A stretch of DNA of 64,000 bases from Candidatus Poribacteria bacterium (GTDB lineage Bacteria > Poribacteria > WGA-4E > WGA-3G). Positions 9,202 to 56,071 of this stretch are shown here, in pieces. Position 1 is the first letter of the stretch. The number at the start of each line of letters is the position of its first letter. The notes under the pieces were generated by a model, which did no database searches, was not told the origin of the DNA, and saw nothing but the letters and a program-made list of their open reading frames with translations. The position numbers and the translations under genes were made by a program. The DNA is taken from positions 1,696,001-1,760,000 of the forward strand of contig CAXXUA010000005.1 in assembly GCA_963663765.2 (NCBI GenBank). The letters are read 5' to 3'.

Positions 9202-10490
9202 GTAGGAGCGACCTCCCGGTCACGAACGTTTTACACAAAATCCGCGATACAAACACACACAGGTCACGACCGTCACACAATACACAGTCGCGACCAGGAG
9301 GTTGCTCCTACCAGATCGCTACTGTCATACAAACACGCACAGCTCGCAAACGTCATGCAAAACACAGTCGCAAACGTAAACCCAAAGTCACAACCTCCTC
9401 CCTGGTAGGAGCGACCTCCCGGTCGGGACCGTTTTACACAAAATCCGCGATACAAACACGCACAGGTCACGAACGTCATACAACCTCCCGGTCGCTAACG
9501 TCACACAATACAAGATCGCGAACGTCAAACCAAACCCACAACCTCCCCGGTCGCAAACGTCAAACCAAACACTCAACAACCTCTCTGGTAGGAGCGACCT
9601 CCTGTTCGCGAACGTTTTACCCAAAATCCACGATACAAACACGCACAGGTCGAGAACATCACACATTATACCAAATTAACTTGAACTGTCTCGTTCAAGG
9701 CGCGGTTAGGAAACAGCACCATAGGCGTCAATTAAAGAAAAGATGTTGGTGTTTCTCGTGTGGGTGGGTTTTCAACCCCGATTTGGCAATTTGAAACCTG
9801 TATAATCGGGGTTGAAAACCCCTCACATATTGGTGTAAACTTAAGAATACGCTTGTATTACTATGACTCCATGTCAATACCTAATGTTATTGGGATTGTC
9901 TTATATACAGTCCCGTAGGGACGATATGTTTATAGATCACACACGAACAACCGTCCGTTAGTCCCGTAGGGACGATATGTTTATAGATCACACACGAACA
10001 ACCGTCCGTTAGTCCCGTAGGGACGATATGTTTGTACGAACCCCATCTTATAAACATATCGTCCCTACGGGACTAAAGAGGGTGGTGGCATCGTTTATCT
10101 ATAAACATATCGTCCCTACGGGACTAAATATAGGACAGTTCAATCCCGATAAGGGTTAAGAAGCACTCATAAACACATAAACGTATTCTTAAGTTTACAC
10201 CTATGGGGTTGAAAACCCCTCCCACAATACGTCAAAATCCTTAATTTGACGCCTATGATTCGGTTAGGAAACAACATCTACCATCGGAAAAAGATAAATT
10301 CCGTTAATTTGGTATTACACGTTCGCGACCGTCAACCCAAACCCACAACCTCCCGATCGCAAACGTCAAACCAAACCCACAACCTCCCCCGGTAGGAGCG
10401 ACCTCCCGGTCGCGACCGTTTTACCCAAAATCCGCGATACAAACACTCAACGCCCCCGGTAGGAGCGACCTCCCGGTCACGACCGTCACG
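9202..10490 (+). repeat. degenerate REP-A array interrupted by a nested MITE stack
   Basis: Repeated GTAGGAGCGACCTCC..GGTC units with recurring linkers CAAAATCCGCGATACAAACAC. Confidence 0.7.
9669..10314. mobile_element. three-level nested MITE stack: TACC shell containing CAT MITE 9720-10257, which contains CAT MITE 9828-10205
   Basis: Outer TIR TACCAAATTAAC/GTTAATTTGGTA with TTA TSD. Inner TIRs CATAGGCGTCAA and (T/C)AT(T/A)GGTGTAAACTTAAGAA with ~19-20 bp duplications. Confidence 0.7.
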
Positions 10491-10537
10491 AAAAAAGAAA
10501 AGAGTAGAGAATTTGCTGGCACAAACTCTCTACTCTT
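10491..10537 (-). terminator. intrinsic terminator downstream of the large surface-protein gene
   Basis: AAGAGTAGAGA..TCTCTACTCTT hairpin with U tail on the minus strand. Confidence 0.6.
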
Positions 10538-10712
10538 ATTAGGTTAGTTAGATAGGTAAGGTTAGTAATAGCACCAATAGGAAACCGCTGCAACGGCAAT
10601 TTACATCAGTCCCCTAAAGGTGTATTATGTATTAGATGAAATTCCTTCTATAAGGATACTGCAGTGTCCTTATATATAAGGAGAACTTGGTTAAATATCC
10701 CTGAATTTAACC

Positions 10713-13700
10713 CTATTGTACCTTCTTAATTTCGCCCCACTTCGTCGTCAACTTGTTCTCGGCAGAGATCAAACCTCTCAACTTAGTAGTAGCAAGCATT
10801 TGACGCTCGCCTGCGAAAGATACGTCTTCAATTTGATAATAATATACTTGACCAGGTTTCGCTGAAGCATCTACCCAATCATACGCATTACGTTCACCGG
10901 TCGTACCAGCACCTTGAATCATCTCGGCGTTGACCTGCTTATATTCACCATCACGAGACTCACTACGATAGACATTAAATCCAGCGTTGTCAAGCTCAGA
11001 TTCGGTTGTCCAACGGACTACGATTTTACCGTTTTCCAATGCTGGACGGAAGGAGGACAACTGAACTGGCAGCACCTGACCTTTAATCGCACCAGGTGTT
11101 CCATAATCATCTTCACTACCATACCAAGTATGTCTCACATAAATCGTATCAAAGTTGAACGCTGCAGCTTGGATCCACGCATATTGCGAAGGAACCACAC
11201 TGTCAAAGTCATTGAGGTCAATTGAACCCTGATCCACTGCGCCGGAACCAACAGCACCAAGAGTAAGGACATCAACAGCAGCAGCACCAAGGGCTGAACG
11301 TGCATTGCCTTCATCATAGAGACGAACGAACGAGGTGCGGTCACCCTCTTTAGTAAGGCCACTCGGGTAATCCCATGCAGCTGTATCGTTTGTGCGGGCT
11401 CTACCATCAAGGTTACCTATGACGTCTGCCGTATTTCCTTTACCGTCTTTCAACGCTATATGGAAATGTATCGGATTCAAGAAACGGTAACGATCATTCT
11501 TCACTCTGGCACCATCAACTTCAAATTCACTAAATTTGTCTCCATACTCTCTGATAACATTGAAGACACGGTCAGATTTGAAGATTATATCTGACCGAAG
11601 ATTATCACTGCCTGCTTGCGCATTGCGGGTAGGACTACCAGCAACAATCAGGATGGTCTGCTTCGGATAAATATACTTAACCTGACCTTTAGCTTTAAAG
11701 TTAAGGGTTCTGATTTCATCACCTGGTGTTTCAATCACCAATTCCCAACCATTATCGGCATCAAGATTCACGGTTTTGGTAGCAGAATTATTTGCGATTT
11801 CAATCCACTGTGGCAGTCTACGGCTAGCAGAACTACCAATAGAAAGCATTAACTCACTAATAACTACGTCGCCAGTGAAATCTGCGGCAAGATTCTTTTG
11901 CGGATTATGATAACCGGGATCACCACCGTGTATTGCAGCATTAGCCACATCACGTCTATATCCAATACCAGTAAAACCAGCATCTACAAATACAGGTCTA
12001 CCGTTATTATTTTCAATTCTACCTGTGCCAAATCGGTCGCCATCTTTGTTGTCTTTATCAACTGACCGACGATGCACTTTGTTTTCCGTAAGGTTATTCC
12101 CGGAAACTGGTCCTGGGAAATTATCCAAGGGCCACAAACCTGTGCTGGAAACTGGATTCGGATACGGATTGGCAGATAAGTTAGCATAGCCTGCCATATC
12201 AACGATCTTATCAAAATCATTCCTACCGGTTTCTGATATATCATTCTTACCAGCATTATCTGGACGGCGCAGCACTAACACAAAGTTACCATTCGGGATA
12301 CCGTTGCTTCCAAAACTTACGACCTTATACCTTGGCACATGATCGCCTTTGAAACCCGGCACCTGATCTTCCACTGCCTTATCAATGTCGTAACCAATAG
12401 CTATCGGATGATCATTGTCATCTGCTGGGTTTGAAGCAAGCAAGAGCAACACACCATTTGCCGCAATATTAGTAGTTTCATTTGGGAAACGATACAGAAT
12501 GGATTCTGCATTCACTCCCGTTATCGTAGTTATAATGTATGCACGCAAATCCACAGCAGAACCTGTTCTATTCCGAAGTTCAATCCATTCATAAGCTTTA
12601 TCGGCAGTGGAACGGTTCCCAATCTCATTGAACACAACAGCAAGACTATCACTAAGATTCGTCCTTCCTGCTTTCGTGTGAAGTGTTATACCTGTACGGT
12701 TATTCACATCACCAGGTGTGCCTCTGTAATCAAAAAGAACTGGAATGTTGGAAATGCCACCTGATGTATGGGTTGTCTGTCCGCGGACATAAGCACCTAT
12801 GGACGTAGCCCAATGTGAGTCTTTTGTACCCTTGCGTTTCGTGTAATTCTGAGAAGCACTAAAAGCAGGCTGCTTATCCGGAAGGATACGGTGCATTGAG
12901 GCGAAAGGTACACCTTCTACACTGTTACCATCCTGACCTTTACCGACAACATCCCATCCATTGTTAGCTTGATTGCCATCATTTCGAATGTTTTGGATAG
13001 CATCAACAACCATAGTACCAGAATGGTCAAGGTTACCAAGAAGATTGTCACCAGCAGCTGTATTGACAAGGATTCCACCACTGATAAGTCCATCTCCACC
13101 TTTTTGTGCATAGATCAGAACTACAACGGGTTTACTATTGAGATTTTGGAGTTCAATCCACTGTCCTGCTGCTTGTTCGTCTGCAGTTCCTTGTCGCAGA
13201 TCACGCGCCCACATAATTTCACTGATACCTACACTACCGCGAGCTGGTGTGGCAAGTCTTCCTACCAGATTTCCGTCTTCGTCTGTCATATCGTTTTCAT
13301 GAGCATTAACAGACCTTCTCACGACGAGTGCACCACCATGATTCTGAGCACTTCTCAGGAAAAGATCGTGTAAATCCGGCATATCTCCCCAGACTTCGAC
13401 ATTAACATCTGTGCCGTTAACCGGCGGAACTTGCGGAAATTCCAATGCGCCTTCAGTTTCGCTCATCGATCTAACGAGAACAACATAAGATTCTGCTGGA
13501 ATCTCTAACTTCATTATGTTTGATGGTGAAGTCGGATTGTTATCAGCTGGCGGTACAATGACTGTATAAGTAAGCATCTGAGAACCAGCTTGGTGACCAG
13601 TCTTGGTCCATGAAACCGTAATTGTCACCGCACCTGCTGCCTGAGCAGCTGGAATCGTGAGAGTGCGTGTTGTGCCAGTACCACTAATGGCACCTACACT

Positions 13701-15155
13701 TGCAGTTACAGTACCAGGATCTGCAGCAAAGGTTAAAGTGATTTCTGTACCTCGCATGACATTACCACTTGCTGGAGCCGCTGACGTAAACGCCACTGCA
13801 GCATCAGGAGGAATTACAACTGTGTAATTAAGTACCTGCCGTCCGCCTTTATCCCATGTAAGCACGATTTCCTGTGCACCAGCAGTACTTCCAACCGTGA
13901 CAGTGCGTGTGTTGCCAGTGCCGGTGACGGTAGCATTTGTAGCATTTACAGTGCCAGGATCTTTATCAAAGGTCACTGTGATTGTGCCACCAGGTCCTAC
14001 ATTACCACTTGCTGGAGACGCACGTGTAAACGCAGCAGCAGGTGATTGACTCGCCGCCAACTTCACTGAAACAACACCGCTACCTTCGTTACCGGCTTTA
14101 TCAACAGGAACTATAGTGATAGTAACATTTTCTCCTGCTGTTGTATCACGACCTGCCTTCGGTGTAATTCTAACAAGATACTCCGTGTCTGTCTCAGTAT
14201 TATCTGCTGTGCCTAATCCTATAGCTTCAACTTCAAGCTTATCATTGTCTGTTTCAATGCTGACAGGATTTACATCTGGTAATCCACTACCACCATCTTC
14301 ATCTCCAACAGAGAAGGTGAGAAGGAAAGTGCTATTCCATACACCGTCAGAGGGTGTGGGGAAACCAGCAGGTGCAGCTACGGTAATAGCATTATTAGTT
14401 ATTGTCGGTGCTGTATCATCAAAAGTAACCATTGCCTGACCGTCTGCTGCTACAGTAGCCTGCGTGGCGTAAGAAGCACTGAGGTCCACTGTGCTACTAC
14501 CTGAGGTGCCACTAACACCCAAAGTTGAACGAAATGTTACTCGGTTAGTTCCGCTAACACTTACAATTTGTAAGCCAGCACTATTAGTACCATCTACCGT
14601 TACATCACTTACATGGAGCGGAGCAACCGGGGCACCATTCGTATCAGCAACCGCAGCTGCAAAATTAAATGTCACAGTTACTGTTCCATTAAAGGATACA
14701 TAGTATTCAGAAACGGCAAGTTCTGCTAACTTTGGAAGCAAAGTCAAGGTCGTTGATGCAAGTGTTGCACCAGGACCACCTGCTGGAAAGGTTACACGCT
14801 GATACGTATTAGCGGCTATTACGACTTGCACTGCAATGACATCACCAATGCCAGCAGCGATCGTGCCTTCAGACATAAGAACTGTTGCTGTTGCTGCATC
14901 AAAACCTGTTTGGGTGCCTTGTGCAGCTGCTGTAGTCCCAGCAGGATCCAAATATGTAACGTCCGGGTCATTGGTATCAGCAAGACCACCAATAGTAACA
15001 TCCCAGCCTGGATCGTCTGCTGTGTTGTCATCATTTAAATCATCAGTCCATGTAGCTGCAATTGTCTGTGCCATCACGGTTGGGGCAAAGATCATCCCAA
15101 CAGCAAGCAACACAGAAAAAACTAAGTAAAATGTCAATTTATTTGACAAGTACAT
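10713..15155 (-). CDS. 1480-aa secreted surface protein: Ig-like repeats, three lamin-tail-like domains, C-terminal LPVQLSSF domain and KLTTKWGEIK tail
   Basis: Signal peptide; duplicated AFT.A.PASGNV..G..IT.TF..DPGTV repeat; ISEIM..WIELQN, FNEIG..WIELRN and ISELM..WIEIAN motifs. Confidence 0.75.
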   Translation of the reverse strand: MYLSNKLTFYLVFSVLLAVGMIFAPTVMAQTIAATWTDDLNDDNTADDPGWDVTIGGLADTNDPDVTYLDPAGTTAAAQGTQTGFDAATATVLMSEGTIAAGIGDVIAVQVVIAANTYQRVTFPAGGPGATLASTTLTLLPKLAELAVSEYYVSFNGTVTVTFNFAAAVADTNGAPVAPLHVSDVTVDGTNSAGLQIVSVSGTNRVTFRSTLGVSGTSGSSTVDLSASYATQATVAADGQAMVTFDDTAPTITNNAITVAAPAGFPTPSDGVWNSTFLLTFSVGDEDGGSGLPDVNPVSIETDNDKLEVEAIGLGTADNTETDTEYLVRITPKAGRDTTAGENVTITIVPVDKAGNEGSGVVSVKLAASQSPAAAFTRASPASGNVGPGGTITVTFDKDPGTVNATNATVTGTGNTRTVTVGSTAGAQEIVLTWDKGGRQVLNYTVVIPPDAAVAFTSAAPASGNVMRGTEITLTFAADPGTVTASVGAISGTGTTRTLTIPAAQAAGAVTITVSWTKTGHQAGSQMLTYTVIVPPADNNPTSPSNIMKLEIPAESYVVLVRSMSETEGALEFPQVPPVNGTDVNVEVWGDMPDLHDLFLRSAQNHGGALVVRRSVNAHENDMTDEDGNLVGRLATPARGSVGISEIMWARDLRQGTADEQAAGQWIELQNLNSKPVVVLIYAQKGGDGLISGGILVNTAAGDNLLGNLDHSGTMVVDAIQNIRNDGNQANNGWDVVGKGQDGNSVEGVPFASMHRILPDKQPAFSASQNYTKRKGTKDSHWATSIGAYVRGQTTHTSGGISNIPVLFDYRGTPGDVNNRTGITLHTKAGRTNLSDSLAVVFNEIGNRSTADKAYEWIELRNRTGSAVDLRAYIITTITGVNAESILYRFPNETTNIAANGVLLLLASNPADDNDHPIAIGYDIDKAVEDQVPGFKGDHVPRYKVVSFGSNGIPNGNFVLVLRRPDNAGKNDISETGRNDFDKIVDMAGYANLSANPYPNPVSSTGLWPLDNFPGPVSGNNLTENKVHRRSVDKDNKDGDRFGTGRIENNNGRPVFVDAGFTGIGYRRDVANAAIHGGDPGYHNPQKNLAADFTGDVVISELMLSIGSSASRRLPQWIEIANNSATKTVNLDADNGWELVIETPGDEIRTLNFKAKGQVKYIYPKQTILIVAGSPTRNAQAGSDNLRSDIIFKSDRVFNVIREYGDKFSEFEVDGARVKNDRYRFLNPIHFHIALKDGKGNTADVIGNLDGRARTNDTAAWDYPSGLTKEGDRTSFVRLYDEGNARSALGAAAVDVLTLGAVGSGAVDQGSIDLNDFDSVVPSQYAWIQAAAFNFDTIYVRHTWYGSEDDYGTPGAIKGQVLPVQLSSFRPALENGKIVVRWTTESELDNAGFNVYRSESRDGEYKQVNAEMIQGAGTTGERNAYDWVDASAKPGQVYYYQIEDVSFAGERQMLATTKLRGLISAENKLTTKWGEIKKVQ

Positions 15156-21451: not shown

Positions 21452-21472
21452 GATTATTGCTCCTATACAATA

Positions 21473-21917: not shown

Positions 21918-22282
21918 CAGGGTTATTTAGTTTTAAGAATTATCAGTTAATGGGTGTTACTTAAAGTTTATATCGTAGTTCGGGTAGAGCGTATGCGAAA
22001 CCCGACATGTATTGATTTTGTCTATCATGTCGGGTTTCGCTCACGCTCTACCCATAGGTGTCAACTTAAGGATTCTGACCTCTTGTGGGAGGGGTTTGCA
22101 ACCCCGATTTTATGTTCATTTCCACTCAAATCGGGGTTACAAACCCCTCCCACAAGAGAATATGCCAACACTTTTTTCTTAAGTTGACACCTATGGGTTT
22201 CGCTCACGCTCTACCCGACCTACGATATTAAATCATGAATGTTATAAATATCTGCCAAAATATCTAAAACTGAATAACCCTG
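21918..22282. mobile_element. CAGGG MITE with REP-D doublet and nested CAT MITE (22053-22195)
   Basis: Perfect 9-bp TSD CATAAATCC; inner 20-bp duplication GGTTTCGCTCACGCTCTACC. Confidence 0.85.
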
Positions 22283-41330: not shown

Positions 41331-41789
41331 ATGGCATATTTTATTACTGACGAATGCATCGGATGTATACAGTGTTTAGACAATTGTCCAGTTGATGCAA
41401 TCACTGGTGATCGCAATAAACTGCACATCATTGATCCAAACGTATGTATTGACTGTAGTGCATGTGGCATGGTGTGTCCTGTGGAAGCGATACGAGACCA
41501 GTTCGGCAAAGTGTGCAAGTTTATTCCGCGCCCCACATATCGTCCCAAAGCCGTTATCTATGAGGAACTTTGTTCTGGATGTGACTTCTGTGTGCTAATC
41601 TGTCCGTGGGATTGCCTTGAAATCGTAGACCCAATTACCAATGAACCCGCCGACAGTTTCTTTGGTGTGTGTGAACTTGTGAAACCAGCAGACTGTGTCG
41701 GTTGCTTGCTATGTGAAGAAGTTTGTATCAAAGATGCAATTCGGGTTGAATCACCTATTTTATTGGAACTCGCTGAAGCCGCAGATTGA
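41331..41789 (+). CDS. polyferredoxin with four CxxCxxCxxxC motifs
   Basis: CIGCIQCLDNCP, CIDCSACGMVCP, CSGCDFCVLICP and CVGCLLCEEVC. Confidence 0.9.
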   Translation: MAYFITDECIGCIQCLDNCPVDAITGDRNKLHIIDPNVCIDCSACGMVCPVEAIRDQFGKVCKFIPRPTYRPKAVIYEELCSGCDFCVLICPWDCLEIVDPITNEPADSFFGVCELVKPADCVGCLLCEEVCIKDAIRVESPILLELAEAAD

Positions 41790-41946
41790 GAACTGCTTTT
41801 ATTCTAATGTAGCACAATCTTTTAGATTGTGCAGGTGAGCGCGCATACTGGAAATGGACGCTACAAAATATAGACTAATTATCAGCATTTTTGATTAGAG
41901 ATGGTGTTTCTAGGTCTAAGTCTTATCCGTAGCAGCTTGGGTTATT

Positions 41947-42804
41947 CTAATCTGACTCCAGAATGGGTATAACGTTGTGTTGTACCTCATCTCCCATACC
42001 CGGATAGGTTTTACCCCGAATCCACATGGGCGGTCGTTTCTTGTTCACAGCCTCTGGACGCGTCCATTCTGCTTTTGCATTGATATAATGGGCTACGTTC
42101 GCGCGTCTGAAACGCTCACTGTGGTTATCAGTGCTTTTGTGTAGGACTTGGCTATTAAACCAGACTACTCCTCCTCCGGGGACTTCAACCGCAATACCAT
42201 CTTCATCTCGAGCCCCTTCCGCCCGTCGAAACTCTCCTTGCTGCGAACCTTCAAGTTCCAAGTGGTCACGTACTACACCTTTGTGGCTGCCAGGGATAAC
42301 ATATAAACATCCGTTTTCTTTATCCGCATCATCTATTGCTGTCCATGTAGCGACTGTCGTACCGGTTTTGTACTGATGATTGAAATACCATTTATCTTGA
42401 TGCCACGGGAATCCAAGACCAATTCTGGGTGGTTTCCAAATATACAGATTATTGAGACCGAGAATATCAGGACCGAGGATATCAACAACAGGATCAGTCA
42501 AACGCGGATCACGTGTTCGTGCAAGGAATTCTTCACAATTACAACTCACATATTGGATATTGTGCATTGCATAGATACCTTTTGCATCGGCTTTTCCATC
42601 TATAACTAACGCGTTTTTAAAGATATGATAGTCTGGGAAGGAACGTTTTTCATCAACGACGTCATCAGCAATTTGTGCTAATATATCGTTTTCTTCTTTT
42701 GAAAAAACGTTTAATCGGACAAAGTATCCATTTTCGTTCCACTGTGCCAGTTCGTCTGCAGTCAGTTTATGCGTTCGTTCCTCAGGTGTTACCGTTGTGT
42801 TCAC
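41947..42804 (-). CDS. phytanoyl-CoA dioxygenase (PhyH) family protein
   Basis: PWHQD, ENGCLYVIPGSHK and LHKS.DN.S...RR motifs. Confidence 0.9.
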   Translation of the reverse strand: MNTTVTPEERTHKLTADELAQWNENGYFVRLNVFSKEENDILAQIADDVVDEKRSFPDYHIFKNALVIDGKADAKGIYAMHNIQYVSCNCEEFLARTRDPRLTDPVVDILGPDILGLNNLYIWKPPRIGLGFPWHQDKWYFNHQYKTGTTVATWTAIDDADKENGCLYVIPGSHKGVVRDHLELEGSQQGEFRRAEGARDEDGIAVEVPGGGVVWFNSQVLHKSTDNHSERFRRANVAHYINAKAEWTRPEAVNKKRPPMWIRGKTYPGMGDEVQHNVIPILESD

Positions 42805-42839
42805 AGATTCTCCCGTTATGTTATATTGGACATGGTTTA

Positions 42840-42972
42840 TAGTAGATTTTAGAATTATTATTACACTTTCAGGTGTAGGAGGGAACTCCGATACCCGACT
42901 ATCAAGACGTTCAGTCGCGATTCGGAGATCGCTCCTACAGAAAAAGTGTAAATTTAATTGTATCTTTCACTA
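42840..42972. mobile_element. TAGT-ended MITE-like unit with REP-F doublet
   Basis: Imperfect TIRs around GTAGGAGGGAACTCCGATACCCGA and TCGCGATTCGGAGATCGCTCCTAC. Partial copies at ~840-917 and ~43390-43702. Confidence 0.55.
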
Positions 42973-43005
42973 TAACTATTCTGTGTAAGTCCTTATAAAT
43001 GAAGA

Positions 43006-43080
43006 TACCCCCGACGAGATTTGAACTCGTGTCGCCGCCGTGAAAGGGCGGTGTCCTTGGCCAGGCTAGACGACGGGGGC
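43006..43080 (-). tRNA. tRNA-Glu(TTC)
   Basis: GCCCCCGTCGTCTAGCCTGGCCAAGGACACCGCCCTTTCACGGCGG...GTTCAAATC cloverleaf; CCA not encoded. Confidence 0.95.
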
Positions 43081-43092
43081 GTAATAATTAGG

Positions 43093-43165
43093 TGAGCCGT
43101 ACAGGGATCGAACCTGTGACCCTCTGATTAAAAGTCAGATGCTCTACCAGCTGAGCTAACGGCTC
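43093..43165 (-). tRNA. tRNA-Lys(TTT)
   Basis: GAGCCGTTAGCTCAGCTGGTAGAGCATCTGACTTTTAATCAGA...GGTTCGATCCC. Confidence 0.95.
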
Positions 43166-43218
43166 AAATTCACAATATATTATAATACACGCTTTCTTGG
43201 CAAATGTCAAGTTAAAAT

Positions 43219-43339
43219 CAGGATTATTCAGTTTTCCTAATTTTTGGATTTTTCAAAAAAGAAACCCCGCGGTAGGAGCGACCTCACGGTCGCGATTTTC
43301 TCAGGAGATAGCTAAAATGCCAAAAACTGAATAACCCTG
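43219..43339. mobile_element. short CAGGG MITE with a single REP-A
   Basis: TIRs; TSD AGTTAAAAT/AATTAAAAT. Related inverted copy at 55580-55698. Confidence 0.7.
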
Positions 43340-43447
43340 AATTAAAATGCAAGAATAGGTGTGTAAAGTTTTTGTAGAAACCCTGATATTATAGTAGATT
43401 TTAGAATTATTTTTACACTTTCAGGTGTAGGAGGGAACTCCGATACC

Positions 43448-43589
43448 CATAGGCGTCAATTTAAGGATTTTGACCTCTTGTGGGAGGGGTTTTCAACCCC
43501 GAATTTATGCGCTTTTTCTCTCAAATCGGGGTTGAAAACCCCTCCCACAAGAGAAATGACAACAATATGTTCTTAAATTGACGCCTATG
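43448..43589. mobile_element. CAT (IS231-like end) MITE with REP-E doublet, inserted in a REP-F
   Basis: TIR CATAGGCGTCAATTTAAG; 19-bp duplication AGGAGGGAACTCCGATACC. Confidence 0.8.
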
Positions 43590-43721
43590 AGGAGGGAACT
43601 CCGATACCCGACTGTACGAGGGAACTCCGATACCCGACTATCAAGACGTTCAGTCGCGATTCGGAGATCGCTCCTACAGAACAAGTGTAAACTTAATTGT
43701 ATCAGGACTTACGCACCCAAC

Positions 43722-44220
43722 GGTAGGCGCGCTTTGTAGGCGGGGAATGCCAAAAGGCATTCATACCGTTGATTTCTTGATTTGGTGCTTTGTAAGCGCG
43801 CCCCGAACTCACCCGCAATCCCCTGCAGGCGGGGAATGCCATACGCGCATTCATACCGTTGATTTGGTGCTTTGTAAGCACGCCCCCCAACTGCAATCCC
43901 CTGCAGGCGGGGAATGCCATACGCGCATTCATACCGTTGATTTGGTGCTTTGTAAGCGCGCCCAAACTCACCCGCACTCACCTGCTGGCGGGGAATGCCA
44001 TACGCGCATTCATACCGTTGATTTGGTGCTTTGTAAGCGCGCCCAAACTCAGCCGCACTCACCTGCAGGCGGGGAATGCCATACGCGCATTCATACCGTT
44101 GATTTGGTGCTTTGTAAGCGCGCCGTTCCCAATAGGAGGGAAACCTTTAAATCCCGATTTTCTCACTCAAGGTAGGCGGGGAATGCCTAAATGGCATTCA
44201 TACCGTTGATTTCGCCCTAC
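43722..44220 (+). repeat. ~80-bp tandem REP-G composite repeats
   Basis: GCGGGGAATGCCATACGCGCATTCATACCGTTGATTTGGTGCTTTGTAAGCGCGCC repeated about 5 times. Confidence 0.8.
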
Positions 44221-44309
44221 AATGGAGAGTGGGATGTTTGTGCAAAAACTTTACACACCCTGCAAGAATTTGGTGCAAGTACAGCGAAATAAGCTATATT
44301 GCAATACAC

Positions 44310-45590
44310 CTACCAGAGCGGGTCACCGAGTTGTACGATCTGATCTCTATCCGGACCGACAGAGATGATTGGGATTGGCACATTAAGATAATCAGCAACG
44401 TATTTTATGTAGTCTCTTGTTCGTTGCGGAATATCATCTGCGGATCGTGCTTCAGTCAACGGTTGTTGCCAACCGGGCAGTGTTTCATATACCGGCTCAC
44501 ATTCTTCCAAAACTTTCAGGCTGCTTGGGAAGGTCGTTGTTTGATTGCCTTTATAGCGGTATGCGACACAGACCTGTAGGTCAGTAAGCGTATCAAACAC
44601 ATCAAGTTTTGTAAGAGCGATGGCGGTTAATCCGTTAATTTGCGTTGCATATCGGAGTGCCACAAGGTCAAGCCAACCGCATCTTCTCGGTCTCTGTGTA
44701 GTTGCTCCGTATTCCTTACCGATATCTCGAATATGTTCATCCAAGTCGGGTGGCATTTCAGTGGGGAATGGTCCGCCGCCAACTCGTGTTACATACGCTT
44801 TTGAAACACCCATTACATTTTCTATGACCTTTGGACCTATACCGAGACCTGTGCATACTGCGCCTGCTGTGCAGTTAGACGATGTAACATAAGGGTATGT
44901 CCCGAAATCAATGTCCAGCATCGTTCCCTGTGCACCTTCAAACAAAATCCTTTTGTCTGCAGCGAGGACTTCGTGCATATATGCGACCGTGTCTGTAATG
45001 TATGGCGTAATTCGCTCCGCATATTTATAGAATGTTTCCACAAGTGAATGCCGAGTGACATCCCCAATCTTGAGTGCGTCTGCTTTGGTCTCAAGGTTGT
45101 AATCAAGTTTCTTTTGGAAATGGTCAAACTCCAGCAGATCACCGACGCGAATACCTGCATGCCTGTTCATTTTATCGGAGTAGGTCGGTCCAATGCCGCG
45201 TGATGTCGTCCCGATTTTCGTTGAACTTCCCATCTGTTCCCACTGCTCAACCATTTTGTGGTAAGGCATGATAAGGTGTGCCCGGTCACTGATCTTCAGA
45301 TTTTCGCTACTGACTTCAACACCTTGTGCTTCCAGTCCATCAATCTCGCGTAAGAGGGTTTCCAAATTGATCACCAAACCATTACCGATAACGTTCACGG
45401 TGTTTGGTCTGAGAATACCGGATGGAATCAGATGAAGAATGAAGGTTTTATCACCAAGGACGATAGTGTGTCCGGCATTATCACCGCCTTGATAACGTGC
45501 GACGACATCTGCGTGTTCAGCGAACACATCGGTGAGTTTTCCTTTGCTCTCATCGCCCCATTGTGCACCTAAGATAACAATGTTTGACAT
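44310..45590 (-). CDS. purA: adenylosuccinate synthetase
   Basis: GAQWGDESKGK, GGDNAGHT, IGTT.RGIGP.Y and RPRRCGWLD motifs. Confidence 0.97.
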   Translation of the reverse strand: MSNIVILGAQWGDESKGKLTDVFAEHADVVARYQGGDNAGHTIVLGDKTFILHLIPSGILRPNTVNVIGNGLVINLETLLREIDGLEAQGVEVSSENLKISDRAHLIMPYHKMVEQWEQMGSSTKIGTTSRGIGPTYSDKMNRHAGIRVGDLLEFDHFQKKLDYNLETKADALKIGDVTRHSLVETFYKYAERITPYITDTVAYMHEVLAADKRILFEGAQGTMLDIDFGTYPYVTSSNCTAGAVCTGLGIGPKVIENVMGVSKAYVTRVGGGPFPTEMPPDLDEHIRDIGKEYGATTQRPRRCGWLDLVALRYATQINGLTAIALTKLDVFDTLTDLQVCVAYRYKGNQTTTFPSSLKVLEECEPVYETLPGWQQPLTEARSADDIPQRTRDYIKYVADYLNVPIPIISVGPDRDQIVQLGDPLW

Positions 45591-45768
45591 ACAAATCCTA
45601 ACTGATTAAGCGTCGTGAATCGGAGAACGCTTCTACTCTGTTGTTCAAGCTTAAATATGGGTTATAGATCGCGACCGGGAGGCCGCTCCTACAGAAGAAT
45701 AAGTCCTGATTCGGAGGTAGTTCCTAATAAAAAGGTCGCGATACGGAGATTGTTCTTGCAGAAGAGCA

Positions 45769-46164
45769 TTAACGTTTTGAGAATTGGAAACGTGCGCGTG
45801 CACCTTTTTGTCCAAATTTCTTTCGCTCAACCATCCGTGAGTCGCGTGTTAGAAATCCGCCCTTTTTCAATGGCGGTTTCAACGACTCGTCTGCTTTCAC
45901 GAGCGCGCGTGCAAGACCATGCGAAATAGCACCAGCTTGCCCTGTATTGCCACCGCCACGGACATTCACATGGACAGCGAATTCACCTGTACGCTCAACG
46001 TGCTCAATTGGACGGCGTGCAACCTGTATATGGTCAGAACGGTCGAAATAATCCTCAATAGGTTTCTTGTTGACAACAATGCCGCCTTCACCTCCGGGTA
46101 TGATTCGTACGCGTGCGACTGATGTTTTACGTCTACCGGTTCCCCAATATTGTTCAATTGCCAT
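45769..46164 (-). CDS. rpsI: 30S ribosomal protein S9
   Basis: [22 protein letters not shown] and QFSKR. Start placed after RBS GAGG. Confidence 0.97.
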
Positions 46165-46179
46165 ATTATTCCTCAACTG

Positions 46180-46617
46180 TTAGAAAGTTAAAACTTCTGG
46201 TTCTTGTGCTTGGTGCGGATGGTTCGGACCTTTGTAAACTCGTAACCCCTTCATCAACTTTGCGCCGAGACTGTTCTTGGGTATCATGCCTTTGACAGCA
46301 GCAGTGATAATAAACGCTGGGTTGCGCTCCATCTGTTCGTTATAGGTTCTATATCTATCACCACCGGGATACCCACTATAACGGAAATATGTTTTCTGTT
46401 CACCCTTATTTCCAGTGACAACGACCTTCTCTGCGTTAATCACAGCAACACGGTACCCTAAATCGGCATGCGGTGTGAAACTGGGGTCGTGTTTTCCTCT
46501 GAGTACTTGTGCAATTCGGGACGCTAAACGTCCAAGCACCTGTCCTTCCGCATCTACGATATACCACTTAACCTGTTTATCGTCTTTAGGGAAGTAGGTT
46601 TTTGTTTTCAATACCAT
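46180..46617 (-). CDS. rplM: 50S ribosomal protein L13
   Basis: WYIVDAEGQVLGRLAS and HPHQAQ.P motifs. Confidence 0.97.
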   Translation of the reverse strand: MVLKTKTYFPKDDKQVKWYIVDAEGQVLGRLASRIAQVLRGKHDPSFTPHADLGYRVAVINAEKVVVTGNKGEQKTYFRYSGYPGGDRYRTYNEQMERNPAFIITAAVKGMIPKNSLGAKLMKGLRVYKGPNHPHQAQEPEVLTF

Positions 46618-46680
46618 AATTCTTGACCTTCTCTGAAAATACTTGTATTCCTGATGTTTTCTGTTTTCACGTATAATTGT

Positions 46681-46709
46681 ATTATACTATATAAAGTTTG
46701 TGTTGTCAA
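46681..46709 (-). promoter_or_regulatory. rplM-rpsI promoter TTGACA-N17-TATAAT
   Basis: Perfect consensus hexamers. Confidence 0.75.
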
Positions 46710-46721
46710 AATTAATTAAGG

Positions 46722-47666
46722 TAAAGTTATTTTCTTTTAGTAGCTTTTGCAGATATTTATAACATTCGTGAATTAGATGCGTAGGTCGGGTAGAGCGATA
46801 GCGAAACCCATAGGTGTCAACTTAAGAAAATATTGTTGGCATATTCTCTTGTGGGAGGGGTTTGTAACCCCGATTTGATAGGTGTCAACTTAAGAAAATA
46901 TTGTTGGCATATTCTCTTGTGGGAGGGGTTTGTAACCCCGATTTGATAGGTGTCAACTTAAGAAAATATTGTTGGCATATTCTCTTGTGGGAGGGGTTTG
47001 TAACCCCGATTTGATAGGTGTCAACTTAAGAAAATATTGTTGGCATATTCTCTTGTGGGAGGGGTTTGTAACCCCGATTTGAGTGGAAATGAACATAAAA
47101 TCGGGGTTGAAAACCCCTCCCACAAGAGGTCAGAATCCTTAAGTTGACACCTATGGGTAGAGCGATAGCGAAACCCGACATGTATTGATTGTAGTTGTCA
47201 TGTCGGGTTTCGCTATCGCTCTACCCATAGGTGTCAACTTAGCGATTCATATTATTGTAGGAGGGAAACCTTGAAATCCCGATTTTCTCACTCAAGGTAG
47301 ACGTGCTTTGTAAGCGCGCCCCCTAACTGCACTCACCTGCAGGCGTGTTTTGTAAGCGCGCCCCGCACTCACCCGCACTCAACTGCAGGCGTGCTTTGTA
47401 AGCGCGCCCCGCAACTGCAGACGTGCTTTGTAAGCGCGCACCTCAACTGCAGGCGTGCTTTGTAAGCGCGCCGTTGCCAATCCTGTGTTTATCGGCGCAC
47501 TTACAAAGCACGCCTACCGAGATGGGGTATTTAGCACTTGACTTTTTCTTAAGTTGACACCTATGGGTTTCGCTATCGCTCTACCCGATCTTCGATATAA
47601 ACTCTAAGTAACACCCATCAACTGTAACACCCATCAACTGATAATTCTTAAAACTGAATAACCCTG
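46722..47666. mobile_element. CAGGG MITE (degenerate left TIR) with REP-D doublet; each REP is hit by a CAT MITE (46809-47155, 47226-47565)
   Basis: 9-bp TSD TAATTAAGG; two 20-bp inner duplications; a 68-bp unit repeated 4 times at 46810-47081. Confidence 0.8.
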
Positions 47667-47669
47667 TAA

Positions 47670-48422
47670 TTAAGGTATGAGGATACGTCCTCCACTGGCA
47701 ATTATTGTCGCACCAGTTATATAACTGGCTTCCTCACTCAATAGGAATGCAATCACATTCGCCATCTCATCGGGGTTTCCGAGTCTACCAAGAGGTGTCG
47801 TAGAACGGAGTTGCTCCACCATGTCTGGTGATACCTCGCTTAGCATATCTGTGTCAATTGCCCCTGGTGCTACAGAATTGATGCGGATGTTGTGTTTTGC
47901 AAGCGGTTCACAACACGATTTTGTCAGTGAAATTATCCCTGCTTTTGCAGCTGCATAAGGCAATTGATCGGGACGTACTGCTAACGCTGCTATTGACGAC
48001 ACATTGACAATCCGTCCGAACTTCCTTTCTATCATGCCATCCTTCACTGCCCATAGTACATTGAACGGTCCTGTAAGATTGATAGAGATGATTCGGTCCC
48101 AGTGTTCTGGTTTCAGTTCATCAAAGGTCACATCACCGACATTCCCCGCATTATTGACTAATAGATCAATTCTACCAAATTCTTTGTTCACCTCTGAAAC
48201 CATTTTCTTTACAGCGTCTCTGTCCGCGATTTCGGCTTGGATAGGTAATGCTTTTTGTTGGTATTCACGTTTAATTTCAGCGCAGACATTCTCTGCCTTA
48301 TCAGATGCTCTGGAATAATGCACAGCAACTGATGCCCCTTCGCTTGCAAGTTTAAATGCAGTTGCTTTACCAATTCCGCGGCTTGCCCCGGTTACCAGAG
48401 CAACCTTTTTCTGAAATCGCAT
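47670..48422 (-). CDS. SDR family oxidoreductase (FabG-like)
   Basis: TGASRGIG, NNAG, YAAAK and PG..DT motifs. Confidence 0.9.
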   Translation of the reverse strand: MRFQKKVALVTGASRGIGKATAFKLASEGASVAVHYSRASDKAENVCAEIKREYQQKALPIQAEIADRDAVKKMVSEVNKEFGRIDLLVNNAGNVGDVTFDELKPEHWDRIISINLTGPFNVLWAVKDGMIERKFGRIVNVSSIAALAVRPDQLPYAAAKAGIISLTKSCCEPLAKHNIRINSVAPGAIDTDMLSEVSPDMVEQLRSTTPLGRLGNPDEMANVIAFLLSEEASYITGATIIASGGRILIP

Positions 48423-48481
48423 TCGTATTTTCTCCTATATTCCAAAGCGAATTTTGCCTTCCTGTAGAGAATATTTATTAA

Positions 48482-49273
48482 CTAATCATTTTCGGGGATG
48501 CTTTCATCTACATCAGGTGTAACAGGATCGTCAATCTCAAGCATTCTGTACCATGATTCAAAATTGAGTTCGGATTGTCCCCACTGAAAATTGTAGTGAA
48601 ATGAATATGGAACTGCATATCGAGTTTCAAAGAGTTTTTCTGAAACGGCGATTCTTTTACCATTGATGTGAAGATAGACATCAGCAACCGTTCGTTCTGC
48701 GTAGGTTCCGAAATCAGGATTCCGGATTTCTATTGTGAGTGGAAATTGGTCAATCTTAGATTGTTCAACGAGACTTCTTAGAAAATCCCTTGCTTCCAAT
48801 CCTCGTTCCTTTGCCCGATCGCGTTCTTCTTCGGGATACTTACTCGATCTTCTTACTTCTGATGCATCAACATCTCTAAAACGAATATTTGTTAGGATAT
48901 AGATTCCATCTTCACGTTTTTGTAGACCTGGCCAAGCATCAAAATCTGCAGGCATCGGTCCGGATTTATATTCGTGAAATAAGATCAACACTCTGTTTAT
49001 CGTATCAGCATCGTAGACATCATCTATGTGAGCAATGCTTCCATAGTAGATAGGTTCACCTTCTTCGTATTCAATTTTTGAGAAGGTTTTACATGTGAAA
49101 TAGATTGCAGTTTCATCTTCAGTGAGTGTACACTGATTATTGTTGTAATAGATTTTTTTGCCATAAACGTTTGCTTCGTCACAACTAATGAGTAATACGG
49201 CACAGAATATTGTGATGATTAACATTAGGTGATGACTAAAATGTTTTCGTTTATGGTAGATTCTATTCTTCAT
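48482..49273 (-). CDS. lipoprotein with thermonuclease (SNase)-like domain
   Basis: Lipobox LISC; VYDADTI, IRFRDVDASE, GLEARDFL and YAERTVADV motifs. Confidence 0.55.
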   Translation of the reverse strand: MKNRIYHKRKHFSHHLMLIITIFCAVLLISCDEANVYGKKIYYNNNQCTLTEDETAIYFTCKTFSKIEYEEGEPIYYGSIAHIDDVYDADTINRVLILFHEYKSGPMPADFDAWPGLQKREDGIYILTNIRFRDVDASEVRRSSKYPEEERDRAKERGLEARDFLRSLVEQSKIDQFPLTIEIRNPDFGTYAERTVADVYLHINGKRIAVSEKLFETRYAVPYSFHYNFQWGQSELNFESWYRMLEIDDPVTPDVDESIPEND

Positions 49274-50317: not shown

Positions 50318-50367
50318 TTAATCCTCCCGAGAATGATTGTAATAATCGTTTTGTTGATTCAAAATTA

Positions 50368-50521: not shown

Positions 50522-50613
50522 TTACTTTTCTAAAGACTGACAAATTTCAGACATACCGCTCCGCTGGAGCGGAATTAAGGAACTATTTTTTCTATAAACA
50601 TATCGCTCTGCTG

Positions 50614-51517
50614 CAGGGTTATTCAGTTTTAGGAGCTTTCTGTTATTGAGATTTACTGAAAGTTAATACCCAAAAGAGGTTTCCTAACTGCACCTTATAC
50701 ATCAATTTTAGATTCTTGAAACATGAACATCGCTCTTTAGTCCCGACAAATGCCATACGGGGAATGCCTAAATGGCATTCATACCGTTGATTTGGCGCAT
50801 TTGGCGTTGATTTGGTAGGGACGATATGTTTATAGAAAACGAATACACTCCACAACTCTTTAGTCCCGTAGGGACGATATGTTTATAGAAAACGAATACA
50901 CTCCACAACTCTTTAGTCCCGTAGGGACGATATGTTTATAGAAAACGAATACACTCCACAACTCTTTAGTCCCGTAGGGACGATATGTTTATAGAAAACG
51001 AATACACTCCACAACTCTTTAGTCCCGTAGGGACGATATGTTTATAGAAAACGAATACACTCCACAACTCTTTAGTCCCGTAGGGACGATATGTTTATAG
51101 AAAACGAATACACTCCACAACTCTTTAGTCCCGTAGGGACGATATGTTTATAGAAAACGAATACACTCCACAACTCTTTAGTCCCGTAGGGACGATATGT
51201 TTTTTCTTCTATGCCGTTCCTACTGAACTCAAGAGAGTTAGATAATACCAATTCAAATAAATCTTGTCTCATTAAGGAATTCTAATGTTTACTGGCAGGG
51301 GGTTACTCTCTTCGGTAGGAGCGACCTCCCGGTCGCGACCGAGAGTCACTCCTACAAGATTTCCGCTGCTAATGAGACATTATCACATGAAAATGGTATA
51401 ACATTTTTCTATAAACATGTCGTCCCTACGGGACTAAAGACACGGACAAGATGGCAACATATAAAATTAACGTCATAGCAAAAAATCATCAAAAATACCT
51501 AAAACAAAATAATCTTG
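50614..51517. mobile_element. CAGGG MITE with REP-C array and nested TACC MITE (51246-51398)
   Basis: TSD GCTCTGCTG/GCTCCGCTG; degenerate right TIR. Confidence 0.75.
50815..51201 (+). repeat. perfect 53-bp tandem repeat (7 full copies plus a partial)
   Basis: Unit GTAGGGACGATATGTTTATAGAAAACGAATACACTCCACAACTCTTTAGTCCC. Confidence 0.9.
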
Positions 51518-51570
51518 GCTCCGCTGGAGCGAAAAAGAAGGTATTTTGAATACATGGTAGATTATAGATT

Positions 51571-53687: not shown

Positions 53688-55059
53688 CAATCTTCGGGCA
53701 TTCCTCCCAATCCTTTAGGTTTGGGAGGAATGCCCGCTCTTTTTTTCTTGACAAATATATGTCAATATCTTAAACTACTATCAGCATAGGTGGTAGAGAA
53801 TACGATCCACGTCTCCTGACGTGGTCTCTACCACAACCAAATCGTATTGGGAACTATGCTGGAGTAAACTATGCGAACCTATAAATATAAGATACGCAAC
53901 CATTCTAAAAACAAACGCTTGGGCAACCTGCTTGACGATCTCGCTGATGTCCACAACCACTTTCTGCGTTTGGAAAAACGTTATTACCGCAGATATGGTA
54001 AATATGCTGGCAGGTATAGACTGCAACCGCATCTTACCAAGTTGTTGAAACGGACTAAAAAACACTGGGCATGGATACCACGTGACACTTTGGATGCTGC
54101 GATTATCCGTATCCATGACGCATACCAACGTTTCTTTGCGTGTCAAGGCGGACTTCCTAAATTCAAGCGCAAACATCGTTATCGTTCTGCCAAATTCCAA
54201 ACAGGCTATAAACTTGAAAATGGACGTGTGCGTATCTCCTTTAAATCGTGGGACGAACCCACACAATCTCTGAAGTTTGACAAACGCAGGTTTTCTTTTT
54301 ACCAACACCGACACTGGCACGGAAATGTCCGCTATATCCAGATACTCCGTGATAGTGCAGGTGAATACTGGCTTTATATCGTCACAGATGATACTTCTAC
54401 CGAACCTATGCAACAAACAGGTGAGAGCGTGGGTATAGACTTCGGACTGAAAACATTTTTGACTTTGAGTAATGGTGAAAAAATAACCGCACCTGAATTC
54501 TTGAAAAAAACCTTGAAACACCTCCGCAAACTGAATAAAGCCGTGAGTCGTAAAATCAAAGGTTCTAATAACTGGTATCGTGCTATCAGAATACTCGCAA
54601 GGCTCCACATCAAAATCAATAACCAACGGCTTGATTGGCAATGGAAAATCGCTACAGACCTTTGCAGACGTTTTGATACTATCGTCACTGAAACGTTGAA
54701 CCTTGATGGTATGAAGCGACTCTGGGGACGAAAAATTAGTGACCTTGCGTTTTATCAGTTTATTCAAGTGTTGGAATTCAAGTGTTTCAAACATACTAAA
54801 ACTTTCCTTCAAGTCCGGCAATGGACACCTACAACAAAAACATGTAGCACCTGCGGACACTCTAATAAAAACCTTTGTCTCAATGATAGACAGTGGATAT
54901 GTCAAAACTGCAATGCTGAACACGATAGAGACATAAACGCTGCTATCAATATCTTGCGGGCTGCTTATGATCCCGTTGTGGAGCAGATGTAAGACCTTAG
55001 AAATAAGGCTAACTGCTACGAAGCACAAGTCCCTACCTTTAGGTAGTGGGTGCTATGAC
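53688..55059 (+). mobile_element. IS200/IS605-family tnpB-only element
   Basis: TTCAT|CAA left junction, left hairpin CGGGCATTCCTCCCAA..TTGGGAGGAATGCCCG, right hairpin CCCTACCTTTAGGTAGTGGG..TGAC. Ends are inferred. Confidence 0.65.
53871..54992 (+). CDS. tnpB: RNA-guided endonuclease TnpB
   Basis: RuvC motifs GIDFGLK, VTETL and HDRDINAA; Zn finger CSTC..CQNC. Confidence 0.92.
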   Translation: MRTYKYKIRNHSKNKRLGNLLDDLADVHNHFLRLEKRYYRRYGKYAGRYRLQPHLTKLLKRTKKHWAWIPRDTLDAAIIRIHDAYQRFFACQGGLPKFKRKHRYRSAKFQTGYKLENGRVRISFKSWDEPTQSLKFDKRRFSFYQHRHWHGNVRYIQILRDSAGEYWLYIVTDDTSTEPMQQTGESVGIDFGLKTFLTLSNGEKITAPEFLKKTLKHLRKLNKAVSRKIKGSNNWYRAIRILARLHIKINNQRLDWQWKIATDLCRRFDTIVTETLNLDGMKRLWGRKISDLAFYQFIQVLEFKCFKHTKTFLQVRQWTPTTKTCSTCGHSNKNLCLNDRQWICQNCNAEHDRDINAAINILRAAYDPVVEQM

Positions 55060-55579
55060 TGTCTCGTATTTATTGAAAGGGTCTACCCTTAGTATTTTGA
55101 TATTATTTCCATCTATTATAGACAGAATGATGGCTAATGTCAATTCTTTTTGGCGTTCTCCGGAATTCGAGGGTTACAAGGTTTTTTGTCTGAACCAGGA
55201 TTTACATGATTTACAGATTTTCAGGATAAGACATTTGCATTAGGTTTTGTTCAAAGTATAAGCGTTTTTTGTATTGCGATTTTTTTGTCTGAAGCAGGAT
55301 TTACAAATCAAGAAATCAACGGTATGAATGCTATATAGCATTCCCCGGGTATGAATCATGGCGAATGCCACACGCGCATTCCCCGGGATTACCAGATTTT
55401 CAGGATTTACCTCATCAAGGGTTTTTGATGTGTGCATTTCGAGCCATACATGATTCAGAAATCGGGGTTGAAAACCCCTCCCACAAGAGAGTTGTATCGA
55501 GGTTGGAAACCCCCTCCCACAAGAGATACCTTTCCCACAAGAAATGTAAGTGACAATTGAATGCCTCTGGTGCATTTAG

Positions 55580-56071
55580 CAGGGTTATTCAGTTGCTGGC
55601 ATCTTAGTTGTTTCCTGAGAAAATCGCAACCGGGAGGTCGCTTCTACCGTGTGGTTTCTTTTTTAAGAATCCAAAAATTTGGAAACTAAATAACCCTGTG
55701 CATTTGCAGGGTTATTTAGTTTTAAGTATTATCAGTTAATGGGTGTTACTTAAAGTTTATATCGTAGGTCGGGCAGAGCGTATGCGAAACCCAACATGTA
55801 TTGATTTTGTCTATCATGTCGGGTTTCGCATACGCTCTACCCATAGGTGTCAACTTAAGGATTCTGACCTCTTGTGGGAGGGGTTTGCAACCCCGATTTT
55901 ATGTTCATTTCCACTCAAATCGGGGTTACAAACCCCTCCCACAAGAGAATATGCCAACACTTTTTTCTTAAGTTGACACCTATGGGTTTCGCATACGCTC
56001 TACCCGACCTACGATATAAAATCACGAATGTTATAAATATCTGCCAAAATATCTAAAACTGAATAACCCTG
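55580..56071. mobile_element. two tandem CAGGG MITEs (55580-55698, 55707-56071); the second has a nested CAT MITE (55842-55984)
   Basis: Target TGCATTT(A)G present three times. The second element is nearly identical to 21918-22282. Confidence 0.8.

Follow-up and report, generated by a model that had tools for sequence, protein, structure and literature searches.

IS231-like miniature elements with fixed 19–20 bp target duplications in a Candidatus Poribacteria genome

Background

Insertion sequences (ISs) of the IS4 family are marked by a target duplication of 7–13 bp, 'approximately one DNA helix turn', and those of its IS231 subgroup by a duplication of 10–12 bp and the end signature CAT-------AA--TAA (family overview and Table 1 of PMC2266710). 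Here we describe a set of MITEs (miniature inverted-repeat transposable elements) that have IS231-like ends and duplicate 19–20 bp of their target, found in a stretch of 64,000 nt (the window, G000:C5:1696001-1760000) from the genome of a Candidatus Poribacteria bacterium. The genome, designated G000, is an assembly of 6.35 Mb in 15 contigs (97.8% complete), and the public runs holding the window stretch are labelled as sponge metagenome. Our reading, to which we give a probability of about 0.8, is that these non-autonomous MITEs (a core of 142–143 bp and longer variants) are served by a two-turn, symmetric, sequence-reading IS4-family transpososome, the transposase of which is assigned by sequence comparison to a distinct clade beside the IS231 subgroup.

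The elements resemble the IS231 subgroup in their 5'-CAT ends and in having a DDE transposase encoded by a single open reading frame (ORF), and the named relatives closest to that transposase include IS231A and IS231C (about 28% identity). Hallet is said to have found in 1994 that IS231A prefers GGG(N)5CCC, so that a symmetric G...C target is a further likeness. The differences are that IS231 repeats are 10–12 bp long as against 19–21 bp here, that the transposases make up a separate clade with 100/100 support, that the Poribacteria copies have another residue in place of the Tyr of the YREK motif, and that the hosts are of the Bacillus cereus group (IS231A, Bacillus thuringiensis) instead of Poribacteria, Planctomycetota and Methylobacter. 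Transposase-less derivatives of IS231, MIC231, are described as mobilised in trans via shared inverted repeats (PMC6199540); MIC231 cassettes carry genes, whereas the derivatives found here are gene-less 142-bp MITEs.

Direct repeats far beyond one helical turn also occur in IS1634/IS1549, IS4-related DDE elements with direct repeats variable from 8 to 514 bp (PMC2266710), but there the repeat length varies between copies, whereas here it is fixed at 19–20 bp. Membership of the IS1634 family was rejected, since the scores against NF033559 are 36–44 bits (cut-off 100) and the repeat length is fixed. Nezha, a MITE of Anabaena/Nostoc, is 130–170 bp long with inverted and direct repeats (PMC3184786), the direct repeat being 10 bp, as in the example CATTATCTAC (PMC6042816). 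Identity with Nezha/ISNpu3 was ruled out by this 10-bp repeat, which contrasts with the G/C-ended 19–20 bp targets found here. Zhou et al. reportedly described in 2008 that Nezha prefers A+T-rich sites. Other cyanobacterial MITEs (Nostoc, Tychonema, Microcoleus, Oscillatoriales; roughly 197 bp) have the identical CATAGGYGTCAAYTTAAG end, are likewise small and use symmetric GGC..GCC targets, but their duplications are 9 bp long as against 19–20 bp here. Some ISs (IS1397/ISKpn1; IS110/IS1111 members) prefer repeated extragenic palindromes (REPs), have a fixed insertion point inside the palindrome, make a short duplication or none and use other transposase types; the elements described here duplicate the whole 19–20 bp unit and enter non-REP targets as well.

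Seven elements in the window and their flanking repeats

The 18-base end pattern CATAGGYGTMAAYTTAAG with up to 3 mismatches matched 17 times in the window, where 0.31 matches are expected by chance and 0 of 100 shuffles reached 17. Reading of the letters and the pattern search together resolved these 17 end matches into seven elements (window positions):

9720..10257, outer MITE copy of 538 bp with a nested element inside; 20-bp flanking repeats at 9700-9719 and 10258-10277, diverged (15/20)
9828..10205, nested element of 378 bp with the same ends; 19-bp duplication (18/19) at 9809-9827 and 10206-10224
22053..22195, MITE of 143 bp with perfect 18-bp terminal inverted repeats; 20/20 target duplication GGTTTCGCTCACGCTCTACC at 22033-22052 and 22196-22215
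43448..43589, MITE of 142 bp with the CATAGGCGTCAATTTAAG end subtype; 19/19 target duplication AGGAGGGAACTCCGATACC at 43429-43447 and 43590-43608
46809..47155, MITE of 347 bp; 20/20 target duplication GGTAGAGCGATAGCGAAACC at 46789-46808 and 47156-47175, within the 5' arm of a repeated hairpin
47226..47565, element of 340 bp with the same ends, the left end with 2 mismatches; 20/20 duplication GGTTTCGCTATCGCTCTACC at 47206-47225 and 47566-47585
55842..55984, MITE of 143 bp; 20/20 target duplication GGTTTCGCATACGCTCTACC at 55822-55841 and 55985-56004

The end CATAGGTGTCAACTTAAG fits the IS231 signature, with AA at positions 11–12 and TAA at 15–17. Four target classes are used in the window: both arms of the GGTAGAGCG..GCGAAACC repeat, AGGAGGGAACTCCGATACC, the GGTTAGGAAAC hairpin and the element's own inner hairpin, the last being the point at which the 9828–10205 element entered the outer MITE. 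The target at 22053 lies in the 3' arm of a larger repeated hairpin for which paralogous empty sites exist, and the 47226 element occupies the other arm of the same repeated hairpin that was hit by the 46809 MITE. An earlier reading of the window, made from its letters and ORFs (the sequence-only reading), had listed the seven copies with IS231-type ends, their 19–20 bp flanking duplications with the diverged 9720 copy, and four target classes; all of these stood, and the repeat sequences that it quoted are correct. It had counted probably six independent events. The contexts at 22053 and 55842 are nearly identical and the central triplet of the duplication differs (TCA vs ATA), with both repeats agreeing at each locus, so that seven independent insertions are likelier than six.

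The left half (68 bp) of the 46809–47155 MITE is present in 4 tandem units, each starting with GATAGG and not CATAGG (window 46809-47080). A run of 9 GATAGG-type end matches, at most 8 of them spaced 68 bp apart, is found in contig C10 of G000 at 12297-12992. Inside the nested element there are tandem repeats of about 53 bp (window 9905-10130), each containing a GTCCCGTAGGGAC hairpin followed by GATATGTTTAT; a related sequence, GGACGAAATGTTTATATACC, serves as a MITE target class elsewhere in the genome. The 47226–47565 element contains a minisatellite of GTGCTTTGTAAGCGCGCC-type units (window 47290-47480), and more units of this type are held by paired elements of 340–1148 bp elsewhere in the genome.

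Genome-wide copies and empty sites

In G000 as a whole, the end pattern was matched 541 times when up to 3 mismatches were allowed (193 matches being exact), and nesting-aware pairing of the ends gave 193 elements and 155 single ends, with a modal element length of 142–143 bp. For each pair every flank offset from 4 to 40 bp was tried, a score of at least 8 being taken as a clear repeat. The best direct repeat was 18 bp in 1 element, 19 bp in 64, 20 bp in 55 and 21 bp in 2, whereas no clear repeat of 4–17 bp, and hence none of 9–12 bp, was found among the 193 paired elements. The genome-wide table thus holds 122/193 copies with clear repeats, all of 18–21 bp and none of the conventional 10–12 bp. 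The core copies (138–146 bp, n = 126) have a median nearest-neighbour identity of 98.6%, with 56/126 having a neighbour of at least 99% identity and 54/126 having perfect duplications. Being small, without coding capacity, bounded by terminal inverted repeats, flanked by a target duplication and present in 193 paired copies, the elements are classed as MITEs. No Rfam family matched them, and nothing in a plasmid collection matched the MITE at the DNA level.

In a paralogous empty-site test, the 70 bases to the left and the 70 bases to the right of each element were searched separately against the genome. Both flanks mapped to the same place for 94/193 elements, with overlaps of 18 (23 cases), 19 (1190), 20 (278) and 21 bp (5) and no other value between -5 and 45. 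Part of these overlaps are due to neighbours inside arrays and the others are clean; for example, the element at C15 154864-155006 has two empty paralogues at 97–100% identity. Orthologous empty sites were found for the insertion at C5 1114697-1114839, the target of which, GGGATTCAATCTTTTTCAC (19 bp), is unique and non-palindromic: three other species of the genus (G017, G014 and G006) have collinear flanks with a single copy of GGGATTCAATCTTTTTCAC. The empty-site comparisons for two more insertions (L212 and L209) were not clean, since relatives have rearranged intergenic DNA there. Since paralogous as well as orthologous empty sites hold one copy, the repeats of 19–20 bp, and with them the whole range of 18–21 bp, are genuine target-site duplications. 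The MITE with an unusually long duplication that the sequence-only reading had described is therefore upheld by both the offset scoring and the empty sites.

Target preference

The 128 elements with a repeat score of at least 7 fell into 39 target classes. When the 78 half-sites of these classes were symmetrised, the preferred bases outside the target were G at -4 (44), T at -3 (51) and G at -1 (57), and those inside it were G at +1 (65), G at +2 (61) and G (37) or T (31) at +3. Only 5 of the 39 class representatives are at least 70% palindromic, and the commonest target in the window, GGTAGAGCG..GCGAAACC (18 elements), is the arm of a larger hairpin and itself forms 6/10 pairs.

As a control, all genomic hairpins were collected that measure 16–26 bp in total and have a terminal stem of 7 perfectly paired bp. 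Among those of 19 bp, 39/1155 abut an element end, and 38 of these 39 start with GGG (38/138 of the GGG-type), while none of the 262 copies of the GAA-type, the commonest 19-bp hairpin family, abuts an element. The corresponding figures are 7/948 for hairpins of 20 bp (GTG 4/61; GTT 3/49) and 3/8,075 for those of 16–18 or 21–26 bp, a set in which neither the 63 GGT-type hairpins of 17 bp nor the 34 of 22 bp abut an element. The end subtype of the element also goes with the target class: the T..C subtype is found in 18/18 elements of the GGTAGAGCG.. class, and the C..T subtype in 19/24 elements of the GGGCGGGG.. class and 6/6 of the GTTCGGTT.. class, with the same split in full-length elements. 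Within one hairpin family a 3-base loop goes with a duplication of 19 bp and a 4-base loop with one of 20 bp, and most full-length copies in Poribacteria lie inside GTGCGGTT..AACCGCAC hairpins.

The hairpin control and the end-subtype split indicate that target choice is set by terminal sequence together with a ruler of 19–20 bp, and that a palindrome is favourable in offering the two half-sites together; DNA structure may have a residual role at palindromic targets. Two claims of the sequence-only reading are thus not supported. Insertion only into REP hairpins does not agree with the 5/39 palindromic classes or with the unique non-palindromic GGGATTCAATCTTTTTCAC target, and recognition of hairpin structure rather than sequence does not agree with the use of 38/138 GGG-type hairpins as against 0/262 GAA-type or with the prediction of target class by end subtype.

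Arrays

Of the 193 elements, 48 form 20 head-to-tail arrays, in which the spacers measure 19 bp (17) or 20 bp (11), and the only other inter-element gap below 60 bp is one of 22 bp. Some arrays mix 143-bp with 177-bp or longer forms, which argues for separate repeated insertions rather than slippage alone. The first base of the element is C and its last is G, the bases preferred just outside the target. As the terminal C and G mimic the flanks, each insertion leaves two complete targets, which accounts for arrays spaced by one duplication length. Contigs of four public runs over window 41500-48500 break at repeats and show neither empty alleles nor their absence.

The transposase in related genomes

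An exact-end scan of public genomes found the end in many phyla. Genomes of the same genus contain IS4-family elements of 1.45–1.49 kb with the same ends and with duplications of 19–20 bp; the MITEs have just their 18–24 terminal bases in common with such elements. Two of the records found in the scan contain full-length elements. The first (L043 1884-3353, 1470 bp) has an ORF of 442 aa, and its duplicated 20 bp form a perfect hairpin; the second (L088 2380-3830) has the 19-bp duplication GGTAGAGCGAAGCGAAACC, which belongs to the repeat class used by four of the window copies. The transposase matches Pfam DDE_Tnp_1 (PF01609) with E values of 6e-24 and 1e-21 and the NCBIfam IS4 equivalog NF033592 with 201 and 210 bits (cut-off 115). 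With a DDE_Tnp_1 catalytic domain, a single ORF and an IS4 model score above the cut-off, it has the features of an IS4-family enzyme. A Foldseek search with the AlphaFold model gave Tn5 transposase for all 5 best matches (E 8e-7 to 1e-5, probability 1.00, TM 0.32–0.39), and a profile search of the PDB sequences gave no transposase match. The DDE transposase that the sequence-only reading had postulated is thus placed in the IS4 family by Pfam, NCBIfam and fold matches; an enzyme of this family with these ends is present in other genomes of the genus and was not found in G000 itself.

The transposase profile was found in 27/39 other genomes of the genus and in 55/159 genomes of the order, the remaining 12/39 same-genus genomes being without it in the profile search. 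In G000, PF01609 has 76 matches, and CATAGG-type ends were absent at all 38 places examined. A paired element of 1807 bp (C4 1180654-1182460) was considered as an autonomous copy and rejected, as it consists of a MITE that has an unrelated Tn5-like IS inside. This Tn5/IS50-like IS (L001; G000:C4:1180400-1182700) has an open frame of 416–436 aa with a weak PF01609 match and the ends CTTACTTTTACCCATAAG; the 8 bases CTTGTGGG on both of its sides are a conventional short duplication beside the 19-bp one of the host MITE.

Twelve loci of relatives (L197-L208; 10 from the genus of the window, 1 from a sister genus of the family and 1 from another family of the order) were scored for repeats of 19–20 bp, which were perfect in 8, diverged in 3 and not found in 1. 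The same-genus locus L206 and the window MITE have 24 and 22 terminal bases in common and nothing in the interior. Since only the ends are shared, the MITE is not a deletion derivative of this element, and the common part corresponds to the ends that the enzyme must bind. We infer that the MITEs are mobilised in trans by the IS4-family transposase of the same genus.

A clade with duplications of 19–21 bp

Scoring of 70 candidate end pairings from 79 related loci brought out 32 with clear repeats, of 19 bp (16), 20 bp (11), 21 bp (1), 10 bp (3) and 9 bp (1). De novo end finding added three more loci (L191, 20 bp; L184, 11 bp; L185, 10 bp), and an annotated IS231A copy has the ends CATGCCCATCAACTTAAGAA and an 11-bp duplication, in agreement with the IS231-like ends and the IS231A duplication of about 11 bp cited in the sequence-only reading.

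In a maximum-likelihood tree of 35 transposases, all elements with repeats of 19–21 bp are in one clade of 19 rows with 100/100 support. Their hosts are Poribacteria, Methylobacter, Planctomycetota and Isosphaerales. Also in the clade are four rows without a duplication length (Herpetosiphon, Fimbriimonas, Planctomycetaceae L164 and Poribacteria L153). Outside it are IS231A (11 bp), which groups with Clostridiaceae elements having 10-bp repeats, and six other elements with repeats of 9–11 bp. The duplication of about one turn (7–13 bp) that marks the IS4 family is thus departed from in the whole clade, where the length is 19–21 bp.

In the alignment, all long-duplication rows lack 5 residues that are present in the short-duplication rows, located after the helix following the catalytic E; that this indel is linked to the spacing of strand transfer would be speculation. 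Of the motif Y-(2)-R-(3)-E-(6)-K, the R, E and K are kept in all rows except L191, the frame of which breaks just before the motif. L160 and L163 have the Y, and in the rows of Poribacteria and Herpetosiphon an I, V, A or L stands in its place. As L160 and L163 keep the Y and yet give 20–21 bp, its loss does not explain the duplication length.

The 18-bp end is also carried by cyanobacterial MITEs of about 115–205 bp with 9-bp duplications, mostly of the GGCAnTGCC type, which are perfect (9/9) at 11 named loci:

L010, L014, L024, L027, L031, L037, L038, L045, L053, L057, L068, cyanobacterial MITE loci with the identical 18-bp end

Since the identical end goes with 9-bp duplications in cyanobacteria, duplication length appears to be set by the enzyme lineage and not by the ends.

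Other repeats and neighbouring features

A variant end, CATAGGTGTCAATATAAG, occurs at 14 places in G000 (e.g. C5 396238, C5 1149262 and C4 38181). In 12 of the 14 copies it is preceded by the same 30 or so bases (..gagattgcgggcacagagacc), and pairing found no second end; the shared bases indicate that the variant end is embedded in a larger repeated unit. Several copies (L116, L121, L131, L146, L155, L170 and G000 C4 1043296) are flanked by hairpin repeats that agree in their stems and have reverse-complemented loops (e.g. AGGA vs TCCT). Such loops would result if copies sitting in different hairpins of one family had recombined.

About 280 bp away from the 43448 MITE there are two adjacent tRNA genes (window 43006-43165, minus strand; Rfam 56.9 and 74.3 bits). 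An ORF of 1480 aa (window 10713-15155, minus strand) starts about 450 bp from the composite element 9720–10257.

Proposed mechanism and alternatives

In the mechanism that we propose, the transposase would bind the CATAGG..TCAA.TTAAG ends, and a transposase dimer would join the two 3' ends to opposite target strands 19–20 bp apart (rarely 18 or 21). The two strand transfers would then be two helical turns apart on the same face of the helix, instead of the one turn usual in the family, and gap repair would duplicate the whole 19–20 bp. Each cut site prefers G|GG(G/T), preceded by T at -3 and G at -4, and a tolerance of plus or minus one base would follow the position of the half-sites (19 bp with a 3-base loop, 20 bp with a 4-base loop). 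The hot spots would be repeated hairpins of 19–20 bp that start with GGG or GTG and end with CCC or CAC, and same-ended non-palindromic sites are also used. We lean slightly towards the more specific proposal that a monophyletic IS231-like branch moved its strand-transfer points one extra helical turn apart (from 9–11 to 19–21 bp) while keeping the ends and the symmetric G..C target, perhaps acting on a bent or partly extruded hairpin at palindromic REPs.

Several points weigh against this account of a two-turn transpososome. No repeat scoring at least 8 was found in 71/193 paired elements, and G000 is without the transposase (no hit in the protein search at E 0.001 or in the profile search at E 1e-10, and a best tblastn E value of 0.43). 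The case for mobilisation in trans is made from shared ends, shared duplication length and shared target classes, while the two-turn geometry is one that we infer from duplication length alone, and the structure model is only moderate (mean pLDDT 65.5). As the terminal C and G of the element equal the preferred flanks, the true stagger could be 1–2 bp longer than counted. There are also about 20,000 loose consensus sites per length, less than 1% of them used, so that the half-site logo accounts for only part of the target choice. In addition, the use of 19-bp sites rises with interior palindromy, from 0.3–0.8% at 0–3 pairs to 16% at 5 pairs and 13/22 (59%) at 6 pairs, a trend that is confounded with one or two repeat families and gives a weak hint only.

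This last trend would be expected if integration were guided by structure, that is, if the transposase recognised an extruded hairpin or cruciform of any sequence, cut the base of its stem and duplicated the hairpin. Many targets are indeed perfect hairpins duplicated from base to base, the step from 19 to 20 bp follows the loop length within one hairpin family, and the GTGCGGTT..AACCGCAC hairpins hold most of the full-length Poribacteria copies. However, the palindromy trend is absent at 20-bp sites, few of the target classes are palindromic, the target of 18 elements is a hairpin arm and not a hairpin, and the GGGATTCAATCTTTTTCAC target with its orthologous empty sites is not palindromic. 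Hairpins of the GAA-type and of other lengths, which such an enzyme should accept, are essentially unused, and the target class is predicted by the end subtype. We therefore consider guidance by structure unlikely. Far less probable still, and already largely refuted, is a non-transpositional origin, in which the elements lie between pre-existing tandem short repeats, or repeat and element spread together as one unit through recombination or replication slippage. Some targets do lie in regions of tandem short repeats, as after window 43590, and unequal crossing-over could enlarge arrays of element plus spacer. Against this, 39 unrelated repeat sequences flank the same element, the empty sites of both kinds hold the sequence once, the length stays at 18–21 bp whatever the sequence, full-length ISs of other phyla show the same lengths, and the arrays mix element forms of different length.

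A third alternative concerns present activity and not the identity of the elements, and is compatible with the two-turn transpososome: the window MITEs may be relics, amplified with an ancestral autonomous element that was lost or is unassembled, and now immobile. To this we give slightly less than an even chance. In its favour are the lack of the transposase, or of any fragment of it, in an assembly of this completeness and contiguity, its absence from 12/39 of the same-genus genomes as well, and the loss of a clear duplication in 71/193 elements. On the other side, the near-identical core copies (56/126 with a neighbour of at least 99%) and the perfect duplications (54/126) indicate that amplification was recent, and binned assemblies can miss multi-copy ISs.

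Significance

No published description of a fixed 19–20 bp duplication in an IS4-family element was found in the searchable literature, ISfinder and the additional files of PMC2266710 lying outside that search, and we hold with moderate confidence that a fixed two-turn duplication in an IS4-family clade is new to the literature. Duplication length is treated as a family constant that reflects the geometry of the transpososome, and the two-turn clade departs from it. Standing beside same-ended one-turn relatives, the clade is a comparative system for asking which region of a Tn5-like transposase determines how far apart the two strand transfers lie, and it also lets the shaping of target DNA be tested; if the proposed mechanism is true, clade and relatives would form a naturally matched pair in which to look for the determinants of duplication length in a DDE transpososome. 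Programs that find ISs and MITEs by duplications of 2–15 bp will miss or mis-bound these elements. If true, the mechanism would also be one of self-renewing hot spots that build element arrays, and such target-regenerating insertions may explain the dense repeat arrays in sponge-symbiont genomes.

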